Below are positions 2,969-56,524 of a stretch of DNA of 64,000 nt, one piece after another. This DNA comes from Acholeplasma sp. CAG:878 (lineage in GTDB: Bacteria; Bacillota_I; Bacilli_A; RF39; UBA660), in NCBI GenBank assembly GCA_000432255.1, contig HF989914.1:11270-75269 (forward strand), in the 5' to 3' direction. The position numbers and the translations under genes were made by a program. A model generated the notes under the pieces. The model was not told the DNA's origin. It did not search any database and saw only the letters and a program-made list of their open reading frames with translations. Position 1 is the stretch's first letter; each line of letters begins with the position of its first letter.

Positions 2969-3655
2969 TCAATATTTATTCAACATTTTTAATCTTCTAA
3001 TTACTTTCTTTTCGATTCTTGAAATATAAGATTGACTTATTCCCATAACCTCAGCAACATCTTTTTGAGTCAACTCAGCTTGACCATATAGTCCATACCT
3101 TAATGTCATTATTTTTTTATCACGAACTGGTAATTTATCAATCTCTTCATACAATATTTTTTTATCAATCTCATCTTCTAATGGTTTAGTTACTATATTA
3201 TTTTCTGTTCCTAAAATATCTTCTAAATGCAGTTCATTTCCTTCACTATCATAACTAAGACTATCTTCAAAACTAACTTCACTTCTTCTTTTTTTGTTTT
3301 TTCTTAAAAACATTAAAATTTCATTATCAATACACCTTGATGCATATGTAGCTAATTTAATATTTTTATCTAATTTATATGTATTAACACCTTTTATTAA
3401 TCCAATTGTTCCAATACTTACTAAATCTTCCAAATCCACACCTGTATTTTCATATTTTTTAGCTAAAAACACTACTAATCTTAAATTGTGTTCGATTAAT
3501 TTTTTTCTTGCTTCCTCTTCACCTTCTTGACTCCTAAGCACGTATGCTACTTCATCTTCTTTTGATAATGGTTCTGGTAGCTTATCCGCACTCCCTACAT
3601 AAAATATTTCACCTGTAAATATTTTTAATATTAATTCTTTAATTTTTTTTAACAT
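2969..3655 (-). CDS. sigE: Sporulation sigma factor sigma-E (pro-sigma-E)
   Basis: The protein aligns along its full length to B. subtilis SigE. The pro-sequence region ...EIFYVGSADKLPEPLSKEDE matches ...EVYYIGGSEALPPPLSKDEE, and LIEHNLRLVVFLAKKYENTGVDLEDLVSIGTIGLIKGV, KLATYASRCIDNEILMFLR and TQKDVAEVMGISQSYISRIEK are all shared. A GGAGGAATGAA SD lies in the 3' end of spoIIGA. Confidence 0.9.
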   Translation of the reverse strand: MLKKIKELILKIFTGEIFYVGSADKLPEPLSKEDEVAYVLRSQEGEEEARKKLIEHNLRLVVFLAKKYENTGVDLEDLVSIGTIGLIKGVNTYKLDKNIKLATYASRCIDNEILMFLRKNKKRRSEVSFEDSLSYDSEGNELHLEDILGTENNIVTKPLEDEIDKKILYEEIDKLPVRDKKIMTLRYGLYGQAELTQKDVAEVMGISQSYISRIEKKVIRRLKMLNKY

Positions 3656-3656
3656 T

Positions 3657-4421
3657 TCATTCCTCCAATAATTTTTTATTTAACAAACAATCTACTCCAT
3701 CAATTTTAATTTTATTCTCAAGAATTCCAATTATTACTTTTTCATATTCTTTTTCATTAATAATAACTTTATCTGCTTTAAAACATTTTATTAACCCTCT
3801 ACTAACACCAGTATAAGGTATAAAGTAATAATTAGCATCAATATTTATATCAATTAATAAAACTGCTTTTTTAGTAATTGGATCAACTAAATTATTGCCA
3901 GTATCTAAAAATCCTTTGCATTTTATTTCCTTTTTAGAAACATAAATAGTTACATCATAATAGTTATTATAATTGTGTTTTAACCAAATTCCTTGTTTTA
4001 TATACAAATATAATATTATCGGTGAGGATATAATTAAAAATACAAAATTAACCGATAACCCATTATTAATAAAAATCAATCCTTTTTGTTTATACGAAAA
4101 TGTTACATTTAAAAAGTACAAAAATCCTCCTAAAATCATACTTGTTGAATATAAATATAGTATATTTTTAAATGTATATTTCAAATCATAATATCCAAAA
4201 GTAATCAATACCATTAAAATACTTATAAATATTTTAAATATAAATAAAGTAAAAGTTGTAAATTCAAAAAACAAAAATAACATACTTAATCCACCTATAA
4301 AAGCTCCAAATATTATTCTTTTTATACTAGCATTTCTTTTTAAAACAATAGAAACAGTTAATAATAAAATAAAATCAAAGAAAAAATTCAAAAGCATAAT
4401 TATATCTATATATATTTTCAT
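3657..4421 (-). CDS. spoIIGA: Pro-sigma-E processing aspartic protease SpoIIGA
   Basis: MKIYIDIIMLLNFFFDFILLLTVSIVLKR aligns with the B. subtilis SpoIIGA N-terminus MKIYLDVIWLLNFCFDALLLLLTAFILKR. The protein is a multi-TM protein with the C-terminal FLDTGNNLVDP aspartyl-protease motif. The ORF-track start at 4478 is a TTG; the ATG at 4421 matches the homolog. Confidence 0.8.
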   Translation of the reverse strand: MKIYIDIIMLLNFFFDFILLLTVSIVLKRNASIKRIIFGAFIGGLSMLFLFFEFTTFTLFIFKIFISILMVLITFGYYDLKYTFKNILYLYSTSMILGGFLYFLNVTFSYKQKGLIFINNGLSVNFVFLIISSPIILYLYIKQGIWLKHNYNNYYDVTIYVSKKEIKCKGFLDTGNNLVDPITKKAVLLIDINIDANYYFIPYTGVSRGLIKCFKADKVIINEKEYEKVIIGILENKIKIDGVDCLLNKKLLEE

Positions 4422-4470
4422 AAACAAATTATACAAAAAATGATATAAATATTGTGTCGAAAGAAAGAAA
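4422..4470 (-). promoter_or_regulatory. Candidate spoIIG-type promoter: perfect TATAAT 6 nt before the spoIIGA ATG, with a Spo0A-box (TGTCGAA) over the -35 region
   Basis: Minus strand reads ...cTTTCGACAcaatatttatatcattttttgTATAATttgtttATG. The 0A-box consensus TGTCGAA is at plus 4455-4461 and the -10 hexamer at plus 4428-4433. No SD is present. Confidence 0.35.
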
Positions 4471-4491
4471 AAAAACAAGCTTTTTTAAGGC

Positions 4492-6803: not shown

Positions 6804-7754
6804 TTAATTATTCACAACTTTTTTATTTTTGAATTCTTCGATGTAAACTTGACTAATATATTCAATTGTTATATCACTATATTTATAAATTTTGGTTTTA
6901 GAATAAGGAAACTGATAACAATAATCTTGATTATTTTTTAATCCCTTTCTTTTACATATATCTTGAAATTTATTTGATGTAAATTTATGATTTGGACCTA
7001 GCGATAGCTCCAATGTTTCTTTTATCTTTTTAATTACTTCTGTAGCAGTATAAGGATGAGTTTTATCGATATCTTTTGGAACATTAATTATTGTAGCTTT
7101 TTCTCCACCATCTCTAACAACTGTGTATTTAATATCAGCTTCTTGCTCTTTTTTAGTAGATACTAATCTTAATGTTTGAGTTAAATTCTCATCTGAATCT
7201 AGTTCTTTTTTTATTTTTTTAAGCATTAACAAATTACTAGGATTTAATATTAAAGAAGAAACATCTTTATCATCTCCAGGATTAACTAACGCAATATATG
7301 GTGTTACCTTTTCATTTAAATTATATTCTGGAAATTGTTTTTTGAAAAACTTATTATAGTTTGTTAAACATCTTTGAAAAGCAGGGGATAATATAAAATC
7401 ATATTCTGGTAATATTAGATGTGTTGCTTTATTTCTAATATTTCTAACAAAAGAAATATTGTTCTTTGTTTTATCTGTTGTACTTGTAAAAACTTTCTCT
7501 ACACATTCATCTAGTCCAATTGTTCTATTAGTATCATCTTTATAATTTATTACATTGATATCTTTTGCTTTATTAATAAGATATGCTTTTAATAATAATT
7601 CCCAAGCATTACAGATAAAAAAACAAAATCCTTCAGTTCTATAATTAATAGTGGGTTTATTTATTATCTCAATTGACATTAAATATGCTTCTTCTGATTT
7701 ATTTAGTAGTGCATTAATATATTTATTTAATTCTTCTGTTTTGATAACTATCAT
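6804..7754 (-). CDS. Hypothetical protein, possibly DUF3644-like (N-terminal ...IINKPTINYRTEGFCFFICNAWELLLKAYLI... motif)
   Basis: 316-aa ORF with no housekeeping homolog recognised. The N-terminal motif resembles, as far as I can recall, the DUF3644 family often found in defence/RM neighbourhoods. It is a monocistronic gene next to tRNA-Leu. Confidence 0.6.
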   Translation of the reverse strand: MIVIKTEELNKYINALLNKSEEAYLMSIEIINKPTINYRTEGFCFFICNAWELLLKAYLINKAKDINVINYKDDTNRTIGLDECVEKVFTSTTDKTKNNISFVRNIRNKATHLILPEYDFILSPAFQRCLTNYNKFFKKQFPEYNLNEKVTPYIALVNPGDDKDVSSLILNPSNLLMLKKIKKELDSDENLTQTLRLVSTKKEQEADIKYTVVRDGGEKATIINVPKDIDKTHPYTATEVIKKIKETLELSLGPNHKFTSNKFQDICKRKGLKNNQDYCYQFPYSKTKIYKYSDITIEYISQVYIEEFKNKKVVNN

Positions 7755-8008: not shown

Positions 8009-8093
8009 TGGTGCGTGAAAAGAGACTTGAACTCTCACGATTATTAATCACAGACACCTCAAGCCTGCGTGTCTACCATTCCACCATTCACGC
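8009..8093 (-). tRNA. tRNA-Leu (anticodon GAG), class II with long variable arm, CCA encoded
   Basis: Minus strand: GCGTGAA-TG-GTGG-AATGGTAGA-CACG-C-AGGCT(T)TGAGG... The acceptor stem GCGTGAA/TTCACGC is perfect. The anticodon stem CAGGC/GTCTG encloses loop TTGAGGT (anticodon GAG). It has a long variable arm, T-arm GAGAG-TTCAAGT-CTCTT, discriminator A and CCA. Confidence 0.85.
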
Positions 8094-20690: not shown

Positions 20691-22088
20691 TTAACAATCT
20701 TTCATTTTTACCAAAGATAGTTCCCAACTTTCCATCGCATCGTAAACATCTAGGTATAACTCAAATGTTTCATTTAAATTAAGAAAAACTTCATTAGAAA
20801 GTTTGTTTCTATATTTTTCATAATCTCCTATTATACCTTCTTGATGTGGAATTGTTAATTTAATTCCATCTTTTGTTACTTCATTAACAATTATAGTGAT
20901 TTTACCCATAATCATTGGTTCATTAGTTATTACTTTATAATAGGTAATAATTGGTTGAACTTTTTGTTTTTCCAATTCTTCTGCTGTTCCATAACAACCA
21001 TGAAATGGAATATGTGTAAGTTTTATGTAATAATCATTATCTACTATATAATTAACTACATCTTTATTTGGAAAACCTTTGCTTATTATATCTTTTGCTT
21101 CCTCTGGATTTTCTCGCAAATATTTTAAAAATGTATATACACCTGTTGCTTTAAAATGAGGATTTAATTCTGCTATTTGCTTCGCTGTATACCCTTCTAT
21201 ATTAATAGCATTAGGTAGGGCATAAGTCTTTTTCATTAAATATAAAATAAACTCATTAAATATATCATCATATTTAGATAAATCATTAAATAACACTTTA
21301 GAAACATTATCGCTTTTTCCTATTTCATTTTTAAAATAATTAATAAGCAATTTAGAAAAGAAAGAATCGTTCACTTTATTTTCTATTATTTTCTCTAGCG
21401 GTAATTCCATTTTTATTTTGTTTTCATAATTTGATACTTTTTTAAAAAGTATTTCGTATTCTGATAACAAATCAATAAAATCATTCCAATTCTCAGGCTC
21501 TGCACCATTGCCATTTATTTGTTTATTTAATCCATCTATGTTAATTTTTAGTTTCCACGCTATACTTTTATCTCCAGAATATTTTGTATTCCAATCAGCA
21601 ATAATTGTTTTTAATCTATTACAAAATTCATCAAACTTCGAAAGAGAAATCGAAACATTTAAATCATTAATATATGATGTTTTACTATTATCTAAATATA
21701 ATAAAACACATTTATTATTCGTTTTTGTTAAAGATAAGCAATAATTTTCGACAACTACATTAATACTTTCTTTTTTTACTTTATCTTGTGAAAAATCATA
21801 GTTAGGAACACCATAAACCTTTTGTGGTACATTATCCTCTGGTTCTATAACATACTTTTCCTTATTTTCATTTTTTCTTTTTTCTTGAAGCCAATTTGGT
21901 ACTCCGTATACTTCTCTTGGCAAATTATCTTCAGATTCTATAGTATATTTTTCTTTAATTTCATCTTGTTTTGCCCTTGCTTCTTCTTCCCATTGCTTTC
22001 TAATTACATCAGGAATACCATAAACTATTTGAGGCCTATTATCTTCTGCCTCAATATTATATTTATCTTTTTTATTAAATAATCCCAT
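20691..22088 (-). CDS. Hypothetical protein with three N-terminal tandem repeats (KYxIExEDNxPxxVYGVPN) and a C-terminal domain of about 360 aa with no recognised fold
   Basis: Repeats: KYNIEAEDNRPQIVYGIPDV / KYTIESEDNLPREVYGVPNW / KYVIEPEDNVPQKVYGVPNY. The likely start is ATG 22088 (MGLFNKK), preceded by a GGAGGAAAATAAA SD; the first ATG at 22103 is inside that SD. It is the last gene of the island operon. Confidence 0.6.
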   Translation of the reverse strand: MGLFNKKDKYNIEAEDNRPQIVYGIPDVIRKQWEEEARAKQDEIKEKYTIESEDNLPREVYGVPNWLQEKRKNENKEKYVIEPEDNVPQKVYGVPNYDFSQDKVKKESINVVVENYCLSLTKTNNKCVLLYLDNSKTSYINDLNVSISLSKFDEFCNRLKTIIADWNTKYSGDKSIAWKLKINIDGLNKQINGNGAEPENWNDFIDLLSEYEILFKKVSNYENKIKMELPLEKIIENKVNDSFFSKLLINYFKNEIGKSDNVSKVLFNDLSKYDDIFNEFILYLMKKTYALPNAINIEGYTAKQIAELNPHFKATGVYTFLKYLRENPEEAKDIISKGFPNKDVVNYIVDNDYYIKLTHIPFHGCYGTAEELEKQKVQPIITYYKVITNEPMIMGKITIIVNEVTKDGIKLTIPHQEGIIGDYEKYRNKLSNEVFLNLNETFELYLDVYDAMESWELSLVKMKDC

Positions 22089-22130
22089 TTTATTTTCCTC
22101 CATATTATCAATTATATATTTTTCAACATA

Positions 22131-23225
22131 TTAATCATCACCATATACATCTTTTATGCAAAAATTAGGTTTTCTCTCATCAAAATTAAATGTATGAAAT
22201 GAATCTCCTAAGCAATATTTCCAATTTGAACATTTTTCACATTTACTACACTTTGTTCTGTTTTCGGTTCTAAAAATTTTAAATCTATTTTCCCATACAT
22301 CAACAAAATTATCAGTTTTGATATTTCCTTGAATAAATTCTTTTCTTCTTTCTACATCTGGACATATAAATATATCACCGTTGCTTAAAATGCTTGCTAC
22401 ATATAACCCAGCAGTACATATAAAATAAGTATCTCGTATTTCTTTTTCTAAATTTATTCCTAAATAATGACTACAACCATATTCAACATTCATTAAATTT
22501 TCTTCTCTTTTTTCTTTTATAAAATTGAATAAATATTTATAATCTTCTTTATCTAATAAAATATCGTTGTTGTTTTTAGCTCTTCCTATTGGGTCTACAT
22601 TTATAACTCTCCATGAAATAACATTTAACTCTTTCATCAAATTATATACATCTTCTAATTCATGAATATTTTTTTTGTTAGCAACTGTTGTAACTTGAAC
22701 AATCTTAATACTTGGTACTTGTTGTAATTTTTTTATGTTATTAATAATTTTATCAAAACTATTCGGTACTTTTCTAAAACTTTCATGAGTTTCTTTTAAA
22801 CCATCTAAACTAATAGATATAGTTTCCATATTAGTATCAATCATCTTATTAATAATTTCATCATTTATTAACATTCCATTTGTTGTCATGCCCCATCTAA
22901 ATCCAAGTTCACAAGCATACTTCATAAGAGTAAATAAGTCTTTTCTAACTAATGGTTCTCCTCCAGTAACATTTAAAAGTATTTCATTAGCATTATATCT
23001 TTCAGAAATATCTCTTAATGTTCTTTTTAAATCTTCTATACTTATTTCATCTTTTAAAATTGTATCACCGCAACTACTACCACAGTGTTCGCATCTTGCA
23101 TTACATCTTAATGTCACTTCTAAAAATAAATCTTTTAAAATTGGTTTTTCATAGAGTTTTTTTCTGTAATCAGCTAATTTATCCATGTTATCAATTTTAA
23201 TTTTTTTTATATATTCTTCATTCAT
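22131..23225 (-). CDS. Radical SAM enzyme with C-terminal SPASM domain (peptide/protein-modifying maturase type)
   Basis: CNARCEHCG (CX3CX2C), GGEPL, and a C-terminal Cys cluster C...C...CSKCEKCSNWKYC (SPASM, 7 Cys). AGGTG SD. Confidence 0.85.
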   Translation of the reverse strand: MNEEYIKKIKIDNMDKLADYRKKLYEKPILKDLFLEVTLRCNARCEHCGSSCGDTILKDEISIEDLKRTLRDISERYNANEILLNVTGGEPLVRKDLFTLMKYACELGFRWGMTTNGMLINDEIINKMIDTNMETISISLDGLKETHESFRKVPNSFDKIINNIKKLQQVPSIKIVQVTTVANKKNIHELEDVYNLMKELNVISWRVINVDPIGRAKNNNDILLDKEDYKYLFNFIKEKREENLMNVEYGCSHYLGINLEKEIRDTYFICTAGLYVASILSNGDIFICPDVERRKEFIQGNIKTDNFVDVWENRFKIFRTENRTKCSKCEKCSNWKYCLGDSFHTFNFDERKPNFCIKDVYGDD

Positions 23226-23236
23226 ATTTACACCTA

Positions 23237-24685
23237 TTATTTTTCATTCAGTATTTGAATAGACTTTTTTCTTTCTCCAGCATACCAATAAATTAAATGC
23301 TTTATACTTTTTATATCATCTAAATCATTTGTATTATTATATTGTTCTATATTTCTATTCACTATAGCACTTAAAATAGTCCCATCTTCTTGTATATCAA
23401 CTATATATAAGCAAATTCCTGTCCAACTTCTATATATGTAAAACTTATTATTTTCATAAAATGCAAACCAATGGTCTTCCATTTCTTTTGGAATATGTCC
23501 TTTTTTTAATTTGGTTAAATTTTCTTTCGTAAGTTTTAAATCTAATTTAATTTTTTTTGTTTCATTTGGCATATCAAGAATTTTCCAACTTTTTCTAGTT
23601 GCTATTTCATCTTCTTCGTATAAATATTTATCATAATCGTTTAATTTGTTAATAAATTTATTTATTAATTCAGATACATAATCTTTTTTTTGAATTACTT
23701 TTAACCATTCTTGTGGTATTTCATCAAAACCATAGATTAAACCTGCTAAACCACCAGTTAAAGCTCCAATAGTATCTGTATCATCACCGAGATTAACTGC
23801 TTTTAGTAAAGCATCTTTATAATTGTTTGTCGTTAAAATGGTCCACATAACTGCTTCTAAGGTATCAACAATATAGCCACTTGACTTTATTTCTTTTTCA
23901 CCTAAATTACTAATGTCATCTACTAAAATCCTTTTATATATATTTAAAGTAATTTCTTTGTCTCCTTTTAAAACATCACAATTATTAAACCATTTTTTTA
24001 GTAAAATATAAGCATCTTTTGGATTTATACCGTCTAATAAGTATTCTATATATTTTGAATAAATAAAACATCCAATTTTACTATATATATGTGAATGAGT
24101 TAAAGAAGAACCAGTATAAATAAAATTTTTAAATAAATTATCGTCTAAAATTAACATATTACCATAAATTGCTAATGGTAAAATACGCATCAATGAACCA
24201 TTTCCATTTGAACTAATATCATCATATCCACAATTAATTAATTTTTCTAATTTTGAATCATTAATGATATTTTCATTGTATTTTTCTTTTTTGTTTTTGT
24301 AATTTGTTAAAGAATAATTAGTAGAATTTCCTATATCAAAAACATTATTAAATGGCGTGTATTTACTATTAATTTTCCAATTTAAAAATGCATCTAATAT
24401 ATTTTTAAACATTGTATAAGTATTCATATCATCAATCGGTGTATTTACAATTGCATCCATGGTTGCTAATACCATAGAAGTATCATCACTCCAAGTTCCT
24501 TTCGGTTGATTATGCGTTCCATATTCTTCCATATCTTTTACTTTTTTTCTTTTTAGTATATTTCTACTTTGAAACTCAATTGGAACACCTAGAGCATCGC
24601 CTACAACAAATCCCATAATACTTGCTTTTATTCGATTTGATTTATTTAAATTTTTAGTTAAATTAGATTTATTACTAAGTATCAT
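23237..24685 (-). CDS. ADP-ribosylglycohydrolase (ARH/DraG family) with an extra C-terminal domain of about 140 aa
   Basis: N-terminal IMGFVVGDALGVPIEF and C-terminal GDDTDTIGALTGGLAGLIYGFDEIPQEW ARH motifs. Residues from about 345 to the end form an additional domain with no recognised homology. Confidence 0.85.
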   Translation of the reverse strand: MILSNKSNLTKNLNKSNRIKASIMGFVVGDALGVPIEFQSRNILKRKKVKDMEEYGTHNQPKGTWSDDTSMVLATMDAIVNTPIDDMNTYTMFKNILDAFLNWKINSKYTPFNNVFDIGNSTNYSLTNYKNKKEKYNENIINDSKLEKLINCGYDDISSNGNGSLMRILPLAIYGNMLILDDNLFKNFIYTGSSLTHSHIYSKIGCFIYSKYIEYLLDGINPKDAYILLKKWFNNCDVLKGDKEITLNIYKRILVDDISNLGEKEIKSSGYIVDTLEAVMWTILTTNNYKDALLKAVNLGDDTDTIGALTGGLAGLIYGFDEIPQEWLKVIQKKDYVSELINKFINKLNDYDKYLYEEDEIATRKSWKILDMPNETKKIKLDLKLTKENLTKLKKGHIPKEMEDHWFAFYENNKFYIYRSWTGICLYIVDIQEDGTILSAIVNRNIEQYNNTNDLDDIKSIKHLIYWYAGERKKSIQILNEK

Positions 24686-24696
24686 TATAACACATC

Positions 24697-26013
24697 CTAT
24701 ATTCTAAATTGTTGAAAAGAAGATTTGCAAACATTTAATTTTTCTGCTTCATGTATTTTTTCTTCTATATCTAATTGTTCTAATTTCTTATCTATTTCTT
24801 TTATTAAATTATCAATTTTAGTTGGTTCATTTGATAATTCAGTTTCAAATTGATTTCCAAAGTTTTCTTTTTTTAAACGAACAAACTGTTCAAGATTAAA
24901 CATTTTAATTTGCTTTTTTTCTAATACTGGCTTATCTATGTTCAATTTTTCAACTGGTATATATAATGAATCTACTTTTTCTTCATATTCTTGATTATTA
25001 ATAAATAATTTTATTGTTTTAGAAATTATTACTAAGTCACTTAGTTTAGTTATATAGTTTCCATATTTTTCAATCAAATCTTCGTAAGAACGTGTACCTA
25101 TTTCAAATCTAATATTTCTTGAAATTCCAGAACTTAACATATCACTTAATTCATTAACCATTTCTAATACATCAATATTATCAAGTACAAAATTAAATTT
25201 ATTATATTTTTTTGAGTTTATTAATATTGTAAATAATTGTTCAATAAACATTGTTGCAACATTATTTATATATCTATTTTCATCTTTGGCAATTAAGAAA
25301 ATAGCAGTCGGTTTAGTCATAATATCATCATAACTAAATGTAGTTTTGTTAAGTAAAACACTTAACATTTCTCTACTTACGTAAGTTCTTAATTTTTCTC
25401 TTGCAACTGAAACTATACTTCCTTTTGTTTCTTTTGGAGCAAGAAAAGTAGACGCCGCAAAAATATAAGATTGTGAACATGGATTTTTCAATTTAAAATA
25501 TTGAGTTATATAATCGCTAGTAGCATAATTGTTATTTATTCCATTAAACATTAAATTAACACTGTTTAAATTAATTTCTTCTTCCTTGCCATCCTCAAAT
25601 AATCCAAGCACAATACCAGTATAAAAATCTGATGCCGTATTTGACCAAAATGGGTCTATTGTAGAATTTTCGTAAAACATTATTTTTGCTTGTTTTTCTA
25701 TATAATCTATAGCTTCATCAATCATACCTTTCTTATATAAATTATAAGGATATTCTAAAGGATTCCAACCATCACTTTTATTTAAATCTCTTAAATTTAA
25801 TATAATAATATTATAGTTTTTATTCTTTAAATCATTATAATATTTATTTATGTATTCCTCTTTTGAATCTAGTATTAATAAACTTTGTCCATCATTAATC
25901 GCTTCCCCAACTAATGGAAACAATACATTTGATGTTTTACCAGATGAAATATCACCTGATACAATTAAATTTTTTTTACTATTAAGCATTTCTTTTAATA
26001 TTTCTTTTTTCAT
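24697..26013 (-). CDS. VirD4/TraG/TrwB-family (type IV coupling protein-like) P-loop ATPase core, without the N-terminal transmembrane segment
   Basis: Walker A LIVSGDISSGKTSNVLFPLV, then LLILDSKEEY, GWNPL and DPFWSNTASDFYTGIVLGL, which match the T4SS-DNA_transf / TrwB hallmark series (GxGKT...DpKgE...NPL...dpfW.nsA). Only 438 aa and no predicted TM helices. Confidence 0.7.
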   Translation of the reverse strand: MKKEILKEMLNSKKNLIVSGDISSGKTSNVLFPLVGEAINDGQSLLILDSKEEYINKYYNDLKNKNYNIIILNLRDLNKSDGWNPLEYPYNLYKKGMIDEAIDYIEKQAKIMFYENSTIDPFWSNTASDFYTGIVLGLFEDGKEEEINLNSVNLMFNGINNNYATSDYITQYFKLKNPCSQSYIFAASTFLAPKETKGSIVSVAREKLRTYVSREMLSVLLNKTTFSYDDIMTKPTAIFLIAKDENRYINNVATMFIEQLFTILINSKKYNKFNFVLDNIDVLEMVNELSDMLSSGISRNIRFEIGTRSYEDLIEKYGNYITKLSDLVIISKTIKLFINNQEYEEKVDSLYIPVEKLNIDKPVLEKKQIKMFNLEQFVRLKKENFGNQFETELSNEPTKIDNLIKEIDKKLEQLDIEEKIHEAEKLNVCKSSFQQFRI

Positions 26014-26389
26014 ACTTCCTCCTCAACACCTTTTCTTCAGTTGTTTCTTGTAATTCATTTATTTTTTTAAGAGCGCTTTGTTGTTGTAATATTTCTAATC
26101 TTTTGTATTTTAAACTTAACAAATATATTCTTTCTTCAATTTCTTTTTTCTTTTTTTCTAATATCTCATTATTCAAATGATTTTTATAAGTAGCAATTTC
26201 TTCTAAAGTAAAATCTAGAGATTTAAGTAATTTAATTAATTCGCATTCAATAACATTTTCATCACTATAATACCTATAACCAGTAAAATTATCTATTTGA
26301 CTTGGTTCTAGAACTCCATATTGTGCATAAAACCTTAAGGTTCTAACAGGAATACCCACGATTTTTGAAAAATCGCCAATCTTATACAT
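25982..26389 (-). CDS. MerR-family transcriptional regulator
   Basis: MYKIGDFSKIVGIPVRTLRFYAQYGVLEPS (MerR HTH), followed by a coiled-coil. The start at ATG 26389 has an AAAGGAG SD. The 3' end overlaps the ATPase gene start by 32 nt. Confidence 0.8.
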   Translation of the reverse strand: MYKIGDFSKIVGIPVRTLRFYAQYGVLEPSQIDNFTGYRYYSDENVIECELIKLLKSLDFTLEEIATYKNHLNNEILEKKKKEIEERIYLLSLKYKRLEILQQQSALKKINELQETTEEKVLRRKYEKRNIKRNA

Positions 26390-26700
26390 ATTATCTACTC
26401 CTTTTAATACCAACTATTCCTCCTTTCAAATAAAGTTTAACATTTCAGTCATATGGAGAGTCAATACCTTTTTGCATTTCATAACAAAAGTTTGATTATT
26501 ATAGTTTTAACAAAGTATTTTATTTTTTATATTATATTTACTTATTAACATTATAACATGTTTTTTCATATTTTGTTTAAATATTAAAATAATCAATAAT
26601 TTATTTTAAATATATAACAAAAAAATTAACTCAATTATACTGAATTAATTTTTTATAAATTTTGTTTCACATCATTTACAAATATACACTTTTTACTATT

Positions 26701-49104: not shown

Positions 49105-50532
49105 TTATTTTACAACATAAGGATTAGCACTTGTTCCACTTCCAGACACAAGCGTATCAGCACTTAGGTTCAAAACTGGGCGGACGCCACGAGTAGCGCT
49201 GACATAATCGTAGTTAGTAGTACCATCACTATTAGCATACCAAGCATTAGCATTAGCACTATTATACATATTACTGAAGCCGGCGGGGCTCATAGTCCAA
49301 TAACTACTTCCACTATTCAAGTAATATGGATAACTACGCCCTCTTACATAATACCATCCTCCAGCATAGATTGTCTCATCATATGTTACTAATCCTACTT
49401 TTGATGTTACTACTCCTTTTCCATTTCCATCTGTTGTACATTCAAATGTTGGTGTATATGATTCTTTTGCTGTCAATTTTGTAGAACCTGTTTTTAATTT
49501 AAAATTAGTTCCATCATATGCAACTCTTGCAGCCTCACAGAAATAGTTTCCACTTACTACTTTACTTGCATTATCTCCTGTTATATTGGTAGTAAACCAA
49601 TTATCAACTACCGTTTTAAGTTCTGAATTTGTATAATACATTTTATCATATGTTTTGTATGTACTATTAAATTTATTGTATCCAATACTTGATGTTAACA
49701 TTATTCTAATTGTTCCATCTTCATTAACTCTTAATATTCTATAGTCTTTTCCTGCAAATTTTATGTAGTTATTTGTTGGATTTCCTCTGAAATAATATGT
49801 TTTATTACCCCCCAATGTTTGGGCATATAATCCGCTTTGGTCACTTGTTTGCCATGAAGTTGTCCAAGTTTGGTCAGTTGCTATTACATTAGAGTTATTT
49901 GTTCCTAATATTGCACTTTTTAAGCCAACTGTATTACTAACTGTTATTTTTACAGTTGCTTCTGCAGTTTTTCCATTTGTTCCTGTTGCTGTACATTTTA
50001 CTGTATGGTCTCCTGCATCTAATGAACTTACATTTTCTACTTCACATGTAACTTGTCCGCCAGTTTTTCCAAATTTTACATTGAAGCAATTTTTGATTTT
50101 TACATCTGTTCCTTTATTTACTGTTACTGCTGCTTCTTTCGCGCTAATAGTAGGTTGAAATTCATCAACTCCATCTTTTTCGCATGTTACTTTACTTGTT
50201 ATTTTGTCATTTTCATCAACATTTGAACAAGTATAGTTTTTCATTGATGCGAATTTTACTCCGACAATTTTGATTCCTCTTTCATCACTATTTTTTGAAT
50301 TATCTATTGTCCATGTCCCCATGTATGGATGTTCTCCTGCTATTGTTAAATCTGCTACTTCTCCTGATAGATTAACTGTTCCATCAGTTGAATTTAATAA
50401 TCCTTCTGCATATTTTGTTCTTACTGTATCGATTACTCCATAGCAACTATTTTCTAATGACTTAATTTTTGCATGGTTCCTCGTTCTTTCCATCTTTAGC
50501 GCAAGTAACTTTACTATTAATGGTTCCATCAC
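49105..50532 (-). pseudogene. 3' portion of a prepilin-type paralog: second copy of the head module + Ig-like segment + shared C-terminal domain. It has no signal peptide and is frame-disrupted relative to 50462..50902.
   Basis: Homology to 1417..2613 begins at ...AKIKSLENSCYGVIDTVRTKYAEGLLN, exactly at the stop of the upstream ORF but in another frame. There is no class III signal peptide of its own. The C-terminal 200 aa are paralogous to gene 1417..2613 (MSPAGF...GVRPVLNLSADTLVSGSGTSANPYVV). Confidence 0.5.
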
Positions 50533-50902
50533 TATTTACATTTGTACATGTATAATCTTTCATTGATGCAAATTTTACATCTTTTATTTTTATTCCTCGA
50601 TTATCTGGATTACTTGAATTATCAATCTCCCATATTCCAGCGATTGGTTGTTCTCCCGATACTGTTATTTCTGTTACATTTCCTTTTGATTTTACTGTTC
50701 CATCTTCTGAATTTAATAATCCTTCGGCATACTTTGTTCTTACCCCATCAATTACTTCATAACAACTATTTTCTATTGACTTAATTTTTTCATTTTCGAT
50801 TACATTAAATATTATTGGAGTAGCTATTAAGGCTATTATTGCTAGTACTATAATGACTGCTAATAATTCTATTAATGTAAATCCATTCTTTTTATTTTTC
50901 AT
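50462..50902 (-). CDS. Prepilin-type protein, N-terminal module only (146 aa); forms a frame-shifted tandem arrangement with 49105..50532
   Basis: MKNKKNG|FTLIELLAVIIVLAIIALI has a prepilin motif, then one head module (IENEKIKSIENSCYEVID...KVTC). It ends AKDGKNEEPCKN* where homology continues in the +1 frame. Confidence 0.6.
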   Translation of the reverse strand: MKNKKNGFTLIELLAVIIVLAIIALIATPIIFNVIENEKIKSIENSCYEVIDGVRTKYAEGLLNSEDGTVKSKGNVTEITVSGEQPIAGIWEIDNSSNPDNRGIKIKDVKFASMKDYTCTNVNSDGTINSKVTCAKDGKNEEPCKN

Positions 50903-56161: not shown

Positions 56162-56524
56162 TTATTCTACCTCTTTAACATCAACTTCGTACCTAAGCCC
56201 ATCATTAGTATTTGTAACAGTAATTATAGTATCGTCACTAAATTTTTTACTACTTATTGGACTAATAACATCTTTTGTTATATATCCTTTTTCTTTTAAA
56301 TCACCTAGCGTTATTGTATAGCTTTGACTTAAATCCGGCAAAAGTTCTGGATTATCAGCAAAATAATTTTTTGTATTCTCAACAATACTATTAATTTGAA
56401 TATTATATGCGTTTTTTCTATTTTCTTTTAAACTTCTATCAACTATCGTAACAACAATCGTTGCAATAATACCAAGTAGTACAACCACTCCTAATAGTTC
56501 AACTAAAGTAAATCCTTTTTTCAT
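56162..56524 (-). CDS. ComGC/PulG-like major pseudopilin (prepilin-type N-terminus), orphan
   Basis: MKKG|FTLVELLGVVVLLGIIATIVV has a class III signal with Glu+5; 120 aa. It overlaps the murC stop by 4 nt. No comGA/GB or prepilin peptidase is present in the window. Confidence 0.7.
   Translation of the reverse strand: MKKGFTLVELLGVVVLLGIIATIVVTIVDRSLKENRKNAYNIQINSIVENTKNYFADNPELLPDLSQSYTITLGDLKEKGYITKDVISPISSKKFSDDTIITVTNTNDGLRYEVDVKEVE

Follow-up and report, generated by a model that had tools for sequence, protein, structure and literature searches.

Defence and counter-defence by ADP-ribosylation is a fast-moving field, which includes DarTG, CmdTAC, the phage Alt/Mod enzymes and the Tre1/Tri1 pair. 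In ARH1, ARH3 and DraG, metal binding by the (S/T)-D-D and D-x-D-T motifs of the ADP-ribosylglycohydrolases (ARH) is established. In Tri1, an extension binds and occludes the incoming toxin. To our knowledge, host-side systems that act as "erasers" of ADP-ribosylation are computational predictions only.

The "ARG-centric" systems are predicted to undo the ADP-ribosylation imposed by invaders or viruses (Iyer, Burroughs, Anantharaman, Aravind 2022, Viruses 14:1977; PMC9503650, section 3.8). Their ARH occurs without an ADP-ribosyltransferase (ART) or a sirtuin. A Nudix-HTH or WYL-HTH regulator is present in >42% of these systems and a coupled phosphatase in ~55%, and the accessory predicted chaperone domains are vWA, SseB and TY-Chap1-3, TY-Chap3 being a permuted 5-strand sheet with two helices (PMC9503650). 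The systems are reported from actinobacteria, planctomycetes and proteobacteria (PMC9503650).

The closest solved relatives of the ARH described here are Lmo0067 (PDB 8za7) and Tri1 (PDB 6dre), which the titles of the PDB entries present as immunity partners of ART toxins. ARH-type DarG antitoxins are also known (PMC13069673).

The window analysed here is a stretch of 64,000 nucleotides of contig HF989914.1 from Acholeplasma sp. CAG:878. It encodes an ARH that continues into a second, C-terminal domain (CTD) and lies within a cassette of five genes. A preliminary description of the window, made from the sequence alone, had reported the ARH and its extra domain and had linked such fusions to toxin/immunity systems.

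The ARH gene and its catalytic domain

23237..24685, minus strand: ARH-CTD gene, 482 aa, ATG to stop in the list of open reading frames (ORF)
23642..24634, minus strand: ARH catalytic domain, residues 18-348

The ORF reported in the preliminary description is real and encodes 482 aa; its strand has to be corrected to minus, the plus-strand translation of 23237..24685 being riddled with stops. The exact protein is present in 86 blocks of the assembly collection, 234 contigs bear one member of its 90% cluster, and both domains are kept in homologues of 40-69% identity. The ORF is therefore a genuine gene and not a chance reading frame. Its sole annotation on record is that of the exact 482-aa protein, CCY28253.1, "ADP-ribosylglycohydrolase [Acholeplasma sp. 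CAG:878]".

The ARH core had been described as complete, which is borne out by the profile and structure matches. Pfam PF03747 matches residues 22-326 with an E-value of 1.2e-59 and 202.8 bits (gathering score 26.2), covering profile positions 2-287 of 287, and PDB 8za7 matches residues 18-348. The all-alpha fold of the PF03747 ARH/DraG superfamily is found here as well. The motifs quoted earlier (GDALGVPIEF, GDDTDTIGALTGGLAG and HWFAFYENNKFYIYRSWTG) all occur in the protein, and the (S/T)-D-D and D-x-D-T motifs align with those of 8za7 and 6dre. In an alignment of 34 homologues, residues T64, S66, D67 and D68 as well as D302, T303, D304 and T305 are invariant. Loss of the catalytic Asp/Thr residues, which would have pointed to a pseudo-enzyme, is thus not seen, since both the catalytic and the metal-binding motifs are kept. 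Judged from its sequence, the ARH domain is apparently complete, catalytically competent and part of the Lmo0067/Tri1 clade. The AF2 model of the full-length protein has two domains, with a pLDDT of 94.2 and a pTM of 0.92.

The gene cassette

26434..26464, minus strand: putative MerR-type promoter, TTGACT-19 nt-TAAACT, read directly from the sequence
25982..26413, minus strand: MerR-family transcription factor (Pfam MerR_1, E 7.7e-17)
24697..26013, minus strand: VirD4/TraG-like P-loop ATPase, 438 aa (Pfam T4SS-DNA_transf, E 8.8e-19)
22131..23225, minus strand: radical SAM/SPASM enzyme, 364 aa (Pfam Radical_SAM and SPASM)
20691..22103, minus strand: repeat protein, 470 aa, with three "KYxIxxEDNxPxxVYGxP" repeats at aa 15, 53 and 84

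The ARH-CTD gene is the third of five, placed between the genes for the MerR regulator and the ATPase on one side and those for the radical SAM/SPASM enzyme and the repeat protein on the other. At its 3' end, the MerR gene extends into the beginning of the ATPase gene, and the two genes adjoin in 11/11 cassette loci. The element with the 19-nt spacer precedes the MerR gene in the same number of loci (the window and 10 others). The cassette proteins are 45-73% identical across loci, the radical SAM/SPASM enzyme reaching 80-93% between cassettes.

The ATPase resembles the VirD4/TraG/TrwB coupling proteins in that T4SS-DNA_transf and TrwB_AAD_bind both score above the Pfam gathering scores and the Walker A motif (GDISSGKT) is intact. 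On the other hand, this motif is located at residues 20-27 of a protein of only 438 aa, which leaves no space for a membrane anchor at the N-terminus. The Walker B position is D278-N279, with DN instead of DE in 5/5 homologues, and the match to NF045973, a profile of coupling proteins from conjugative elements of Bacillota, gives 129.5 bits, under the cut-off of 250. Also unlike the coupling proteins, the cassette ATPase has a MerR gene as its constant partner, and the window shows no transfer genes such as those for a relaxase or VirB4. A role of the cassette as part of a conjugation apparatus was considered and rejected, as transfer genes are missing and the ATPase has no anchor. With the ATPase as query, the metagenome scan returned seven loci and the viral scan a single distant match of 23% identity.

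The radical SAM/SPASM enzyme carries a CX3CX2C motif (C41/C45/C48) and a C-terminal Cys cluster, and scores 317 bits against TIGR04133, under the cut-off of 425. The repeat protein has no match in Pfam, NCBIfam or PDB, and its homologues retain 2-4 repeats. In PADLOC-DB v2, no system matches ARH-CTD or the ATPase; the match of the MerR protein to mad1 is weak and the similarity of the radical SAM enzyme to pVip is generic.

The C-terminal domain and its family

23240..23617, minus strand: CTD, residues 357-482, ~125 aa (AF2 model and alignments)

The extra domain is present, although it is not of 140 aa as first described: a long linker helix joins the ARH to a CTD of ~125 aa. As stated then, it holds no recognisable motif, and no match is found in Pfam, NCBIfam, PHROGs, PADLOC or the PDB sequences. 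The HMM scan and structure prediction suggested at that stage give no family match for the CTD and a predicted fold of topology beta-alpha-beta4-alpha, with a pLDDT of ~95-98 across the domain in the model of the full-length protein. Among the closest comparisons listed are TBP-like/helix-grip alpha+beta folds, such as TBP, the N-terminal domain of AlkA, the C-terminal domain of phosphoglucomutase, Bet v 1, KA1 and Atp11. A structure search of BFVD with the full-length protein returned ARH matches only. The conserved residues of the CTD are W367, G396, P399, M402, E403, D404, W406, F407, R419, S420, W421 and G423, and its single conserved polar/aromatic site is formed by MEDxWF and RSWxG.

An exhaustive HMMER scan assigns to the CTD family at least 2,117 representative clusters (50% identity) at E <= 1e-3, and 1,058 clusters at E <= 1e-10. 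A word-indexed search, which found two fragments only, had suggested a near-orphan domain; the exhaustive scan overturned this view. The CTD is borne by 64 of the 120 best homologues and is therefore a common extension within this ARH clade, not unique to the gene. The preliminary description had considered that the region might turn out to be a common extension of known function; it is indeed common, but every source name seen among the family members is "hypothetical protein". A scan of GTDB genomes with peptide patterns of the ARH core retrieved mostly ARH-only loci, with the CTD in 1/80.

Stand-alone proteins make up ~60% of the family, and the genomic surroundings of three such genes were uninformative. 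Among 61 multidomain representatives, the fusion partners of the CTD are Macro (8), ARH (7), NADAR (6), NUDIX (4) and PARG (1), and SseB, a PTP/rhodanese-type phosphatase (PTP-SAK/Tc-R-P), HIRAN and PD-(D/E)XK are found once each. Gene neighbourhoods include NADAR, NADAR, CTD-ARH and HD_4 in one case and CTD-NADAR followed by Macro in another. The CTD family is found together with enzymes of ADP-ribose removal or processing (Macro, ARH, NADAR, NUDIX and PARG), and some of its loci conform to the ARG-centric template.

These features may also be read in terms of catalysis. The CTD would then be an enzyme, rather than a reader or chaperone, that processes the released ADP-ribose or a related nucleotide, akin to the phosphatases coupled to ARG. 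The invariant polar/charged cluster of E403, D404, R419, S420 and N443-R444 at one pole of the sheet is in line with this, as are the many small stand-alone members and the frequent adjacency or fusion to NUDIX and phosphatases. We nevertheless regard an enzymatic CTD as hardly likely.

Sister cassettes and genomic setting

The position of the CTD varies between cassettes. It sits on the ARH in the window and in loci L091, L093 and L101, on the repeat protein in L095 and L102, and on the ATPase in L094; in the homologues concerned (P0147 and P0128 for the repeat protein, P0193 for the ATPase) it forms the C-terminus. Three cassettes (L094, L100 and L102) lack any ARH, so the role of the CTD is not solely to aid an ADP-ribosylhydrolase. 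A role as homotypic adaptor common to the cassette proteins was rejected, the window having exactly one copy of the CTD. Sister locus L095 also contains Metallophos.

The preliminary description saw no partner ART, and this stands: no ART Pfam domain occurs among the window ORFs checked, the remaining ORFs being judged housekeeping by eye. Likewise, no ART, T6SS or T7SS Pfam family is present within +/-10 kb or among the other window ORFs of unknown function, and Pfam and PADLOC show no DarT-like gene in the cassette. The DarTG systems with an ARH-type antitoxin (DarG3) differ in this respect, their DarT gene being adjacent.

An unlikely explanation is orphan or acquired immunity against the ART toxins of other bacteria, in which the ARH would reverse the modification and the CTD would bind and occlude the toxin as in Tri1. 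The earlier link to toxin/immunity systems holds insofar as Lmo0067 and Tri1, the solved proteins closest to this ARH, are immunity partners of ART toxins. However, both end with the ARH (332 and 366 aa) and have no CTD, and each partners an ART toxin, whereas ARH-CTD has neither toxin nor secretion system nearby; its neighbours are the MerR regulator, the ATPase, the radical SAM/SPASM enzyme, the repeat protein, folD and ppdK. The match to the Tri1 equivalog NF041672 (170.9 bits against a cut-off of 490) falls short of Tri1-level similarity. Toxin-specific binding is also hard to reconcile with a CTD that occurs on structurally unrelated proteins (Macro, NADAR, NUDIX, ATPase and repeat proteins) and mostly stands alone. 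A simple toxin/immunity pair is thus argued against by the conserved MerR/ATPase/radical SAM operon, in which the gene is embedded, and by the movement of the CTD between the cassette proteins.

The window cassette is flanked by the housekeeping genes folD and ppdK and not by an obvious defence island. This setting would suit an endogenous regulation of the DraG/DraT type, in which ARH-CTD would reset a host protein modified by the cell's own ART encoded elsewhere, and the ARH family does include DraG (TIGR02662, E 2.8e-35). Yet the score against the DraG equivalog is 121.9 for a cut-off of 337, the cassette is patchy and modular with a CTD that swaps between proteins, and the characterised members of this ARH clade are immunity proteins. 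Such an endogenous regulation is very improbable.

As is seen in mobile islands, genes for serine recombinases and HTH proteins adjoin some of the cassette copies, and in locus L006 the identical ARH-CTD protein has a different upstream flank. The cassette could accordingly be anti-defence cargo of a mobile element, with ARH-CTD stripping from the DNA or RNA of the element the ADP-ribose added by a host ART of the DarT or CmdT type. The relation of the ATPase to the NF045973 coupling proteins and the existence of the ARH-type DarG antitoxins point the same way. Against this, the transfer genes and the room for an anchor are missing, as seen above, and the CTD has no homologue in 50,697 phage records and only three matches among 72,556 plasmids. 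Furthermore, the cassette lies between core genes in the window, and most metagenomic copies have the same flanks as the window. We consider anti-defence cargo quite unlikely.

A putative system for the reversal of ADP-ribosylation

The explanation tentatively preferred, which we hold at somewhat below an even chance, is that the cassette can be induced to undo ADP-ribosylation of external origin and that its CTD serves for recognition or as a sensor; the cassette would be a variant of the predicted ARG-centric systems. The cassette would be off by default and switched on via the MerR-type promoter. Then, the ARH would remove from host molecules the ADP-ribose placed by an ART of a phage or competitor, not encoded in the cassette. 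The MEDxWF and RSWxG site of the CTD may serve to recognise a ligand or target that bears ADP-ribose, and thereby to direct or gate the protein to which it is attached. We infer the trigger, the substrate, the ligand of the CTD and the roles of the ATPase, the radical SAM enzyme and the repeat protein.

A wider proposal is rather unlikely as a whole: the MerR/VirD4-like ATPase/CTD core, with optional ARH, radical SAM/SPASM enzyme and repeat protein, could form a conflict system in Mollicutes and Bacillota of the gut that is inducible and was not described before. The CTD would be a new reader of ADP-ribose (or of an NAD-derived nucleotide), attachable to any of the ATPase, hydrolase and repeat protein, and the ATPase, given the Asn in its Walker B motif, would act as a nucleotide-bound switch and not as a DNA pump. 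The literature search retrieved nothing relevant for Lmo0067, for TIGR04133 or for the combination of VirD4, ARH and radical SAM.

Under the preferred explanation, the locus would exemplify an eraser-type system that is compact, highly conserved and abundant in the gut. It brings together a soluble, coupling-protein-like ATPase in constant association with a MerR regulator, the pair of a radical SAM enzyme and a protein bearing conserved short repeats, and a domain from a family unnamed in the databases (at least 2,100 clusters) that tracks five unrelated families of ADP-ribose-processing enzymes. Binding of ADP-ribose conjugates by the CTD, if it occurs, would add a new reader module beside the macrodomain.

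Like the ARG-centric systems, the window cassette has an ARH without a linked ART or sirtuin, a transcription factor at the head of the operon and a small alpha+beta accessory domain, the CTD, for which TY-Chap1-3 are candidate counterparts. The partners of the CTD across its family (Macro, NADAR, NUDIX, the R-P phosphatase, SseB, HIRAN and the REase) are essentially the ARG-centric component list (PMC9503650). On the other hand, the regulator is a MerR protein and not Nudix-HTH or WYL-HTH, the phosphatase is missing from the window cassette, and the VirD4-like ATPase, the radical SAM/SPASM enzyme and the repeat protein are additions; the terms "VirD4" and "radical SAM" have 0 occurrences in the text of PMC9503650. 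The ARG-centric report covers no Mollicutes or Bacillota, whereas the cassette comes from such a host. On the Aeromonas plasmid pE31A, the gene order is WYL transcription factor, ARH, hypothetical protein, NUDIX-CTD, DUF262 and SNF2; unlike the window cassette, this CTD locus does contain a WYL regulator.

The ARH-CTD gene and its operon

The ADP-ribosylglycohydrolase (ARH) with an unnamed C-terminal domain (CTD, residues 357-482) is encoded in a tightly packed minus-strand block of five genes, preceded by a promoter-like element:

26434..26464, minus strand: promoter-like element TTGACT-19 nt-TAAACT, about 20 nt upstream of the MerR start
25982..26413, minus strand: MerR regulator
24697..26013, minus strand: VirD4/TraG-like ATPase
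23237..24685, minus strand: ARH-CTD gene, ATG-to-stop ORF of 482 aa, third gene of the operon
22131..23225, minus strand: radical SAM/SPASM (rSAM) enzyme
20691..22103, minus strand: 470-aa repeat protein with no family match

The ARH-CTD ORF was confirmed, on the minus strand, and all the peptide motifs cited in the preliminary description are found in its translation; the plus-strand reading of the same interval contains many stops. The protein is genuine and abundant: its exact sequence is found in 86 assembly-collection blocks and is recorded at NCBI as CCY28253.1, "ADP-ribosylglycohydrolase [Acholeplasma sp. CAG:878]", and a single protein of its 90% cluster was present on 234 contigs. The organism is filed under Mollicutes in the NCBI taxonomy and the G+C content of the window is 26.2%.

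The ARH domain

The Pfam PF03747 profile matches residues 22-326 over its full length (E 1.2e-59), in agreement with the complete ARH core claimed originally. Among solved structures, Lmo0067 (8za7, E 9e-63, residues 18-348) and Tri1 (6dre) are closest in sequence. The two-metal-binding positions of known ARHs, here T64/S66-D67-D68, D302-T303-D304-T305 and E37, do not vary among 34 aligned homologues. This predicts an active enzyme, and the loss of catalytic Asp/Thr residues, considered earlier as the mark of a pseudo-enzyme, does not hold. As an ARH, the enzyme belongs to a known family and is unremarkable within it. It is neither a Tri1 equivalog (170.9 bits against a cut-off of 490) nor a DraG equivalog (121.9 bits against 337), the latter score counting against the rival explanation of a DraG-like endogenous regulation.

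A large CTD family without a name

Nothing in Pfam, NCBIfam, PHROGs or PADLOC matches the CTD, and a 41-sequence profile run at E <= 10 likewise drew no PDB sequence, which bears out the absence of a recognisable motif. A word-indexed search returned two fragments only. When 1.84 billion representatives were scanned exhaustively with HMMER, 2,117 clusters passed E <= 1e-3 and 1,058 passed E <= 1e-10. In the best 149 representatives, the domain stands alone in 90 (110-170 aa) and is N-terminal in 29, C-terminal in 21 and internal in 9; two carry a tandem pair. A profile search gave 711 matches in a 5.8-billion-sequence database. Nearly all of the 120 listed are named "hypothetical protein" at source, none of these 120 has a precomputed Pfam domain, and the source organisms include Nostoc, a Halobacteriota archaeon and Erysipelotrichaceae. 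The CTD is a widespread domain without a name in current public libraries. Nor is it a one-off extra domain, since 64 of the 120 best ARH homologues have the same fusion, which is common within this ARH clade. Other ARHs of the clade (P0061, P0084 and P0044 with PF20118; P0027, P0050 and P0074 with PF08837) carry a C-terminal DUF6508 or DUF1810 at the position of the CTD, which may represent displacement by domains of equivalent role.

In the predicted model, a long helix (334-355) follows the ARH core and leads into a compact CTD with a pLDDT of about 95-98 per block. Its elements are a strand (376-384), a helix (387-394), four strands (406-411, 414-419, 425-431 and 436-443) and two helices (454-468 and 472-480). 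Alignments show conservation of W367, G396, P399, M402, E403, D404, W406, F407, R419, S420, W421 and G423; N443-R444-(D/N)..Q-Y is also kept in most members outside the ARH-fused subfamily. Given the hairpin topology, the conserved residues at the start of strand 2 and the ends of strands 3 and 5 would gather at the same pole of the sheet, pointing to a single site. A polar/aromatic site of this kind fits a recognition module; that the CTD is itself an enzyme is a less likely rival explanation.

Composition and variation of the cassette

The MerR and ATPase genes are present and adjacent in all 11 cassette loci compared, including the window. The promoter-like element lies upstream of MerR in the 10 other loci (L091, L093-L095, L100-L105); TATATT stands for TAAACT in some, and the 19-nt spacer is invariant (11/11). 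Spacers of 19-20 nt are a signature of MerR-family-controlled promoters, and this spacing therefore suggests an operon turned on by a signal.

The Walker A motif of the ATPase (GDISSGKT) is intact at residues 20-27, leaving no space for an N-terminal membrane anchor, and the protein is predicted to be soluble. Its Walker B motif (FVLDN) has D278-N279 instead of D-E in 5/5 aligned homologues; with Asn replacing the catalytic Glu, the ATPase may bind ATP and hydrolyse it poorly. The rSAM enzyme retains the CX3CX2C motif and the SPASM cysteines. Its gene, very conserved (80-93% identity between cassettes), is always followed by that of the repeat protein, and both are found in 6/11 loci. The 470-aa protein contains the KYxIxxEDNxPxxVYGxP repeat three times, at aa 15, 53 and 84 (2-4 times in homologues), and the two proteins could plausibly be maturase and substrate.

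The ARH-CTD gene is present in 4/11 loci (window, L091, L093 and L101). In L095 and L102 it is the repeat protein that bears the CTD; in L094, a locus lacking both ARH and rSAM genes, it is the ATPase. No CTD was detected in L100, and the window has exactly one copy. Local BLAST retrieved an ATPase homologue with a CTD (P0193, 53% identity) and two such homologues of the 470-aa protein (P0147 and P0128, 50% and 38%). From this variation in carrier and in ARH presence, the CTD behaves as a portable cassette module and the ARH as an optional insertion. The ARH-CTD gene P0082 lies outside any such cassette. No description of the cassette was found in the searchable literature.

The flanks of the cassette-ppdK block differ among metagenomic copies with identical ARH-CTD protein (L001 and L005 16970-21449; L006 1-8000). 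In some copies the downstream side holds an island that encodes HTH, Metallophos or DUF4116 as well as a serine recombinase, and in one the upstream region differs and includes a C39-peptidase ABC transporter.

Partners and neighbourhoods of the CTD

A Pfam scan of 61 multidomain CTD representatives identified as partners Macro (8), ARH (7), NADAR (6), NUDIX (4) and microbial PARG (1). SseB, PTP-SAK/Tc-R-P phosphatase, HIRAN, PD-(D/E)XK, GIY-YIG and VirD4-type ATPase occur in one case each. Since the former are five structurally unrelated ADP-ribose-processing families, the CTD appears closely linked to ADP-ribose chemistry. Gene neighbourhoods agree with these fusions: NADAR, NADAR, CTD-ARH and HD_4 at one locus; AsnC regulator, stand-alone RNA-polymerase alpha-CTD gene, 63-aa gene, CTD-NADAR and Macro at another; WYL regulator, ARH, hypothetical protein, NUDIX-CTD, DUF262 and SNF2 on Aeromonas media plasmid pE31A; and inositol-monophosphatase family protein, NUDIX and CTD protein on a Rhodobacter plasmid.

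The alpha C-terminal domain of RNA polymerase is a classic ADP-ribosylation target of phage T4 Alt/ModA. A 123-aa stand-alone gene for it adjoins CTD-NADAR and Macro in two loci (L097 6278-8447 and L098 1362-3531), and its product could be a decoy or sensor.

The partners and neighbours of the CTD are essentially the component list of the ARG-centric systems (PMC9503650, section 3.8), predicted to strip viral-ART ADP-ribose from host macromolecules (Iyer et al. 2022, PMC9503650). These systems include small predicted chaperone domains, TY-Chap1-3; TY-Chap3 is said to combine two helices with a permuted sheet of five strands (PMC9503650). The CTD may correspond to a chaperone family of this computationally predicted kind.

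Functional interpretation

The preliminary description had noted no partner ADP-ribosyltransferase (ART) in the window, and this was borne out: ART, DarT and sirtuin domains are absent from the precomputed Pfam lists within +/-10 kb of the ARH-CTD gene and from scans of the cassette and ten unassigned window ORFs. The other window ORFs were recognised as housekeeping genes by reading their translations. The most economical reading is an inducible cassette in which the ARH would erase ADP-ribose marks set by an enzyme whose gene lies elsewhere, most likely in an invader, with the CTD as a module recognising a ligand or target. An orphan immunity against interbacterial ART toxins is a less likely rival explanation.

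The invader-erasing reading is weakened by the ARH-less cassettes. The stand-alone CTDs, which form most of the family and were uninformative in the three contexts inspected, also count against it, as does PADLOC, which recognised nothing at the cassette. The same applies to the scarcity of CTD homologues in phage (0/50,697) and plasmid (3/72,556) records, figures that also count against the rival in which the cassette is anti-defence cargo of a mobile element.

Other genes of the window

A 316-aa protein (6804-7754, minus strand) with DUF3644 and an EC042_2821-like restriction-endonuclease-like domain adjoins tRNA-Leu (8009-8093) and may serve in defence or abortive infection. Type-IV-pilin-like N-terminal methylation motifs (GFTLIELLAV) occur at 1417-2613, 49105-50532, 50462-50902 and 56162-56524 (all minus strand), two of these genes sharing large, mutually similar C-terminal domains; such genes are unexpected in an organism classed as Mollicutes. 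By eye, a sporulation-type sigma factor adjoins a SpoIIGA-like membrane protease at 2969-4478 (minus strand), and the NCBI label Acholeplasma sp. CAG:878 may be loose, because this pair is odd for an 'Acholeplasma'.
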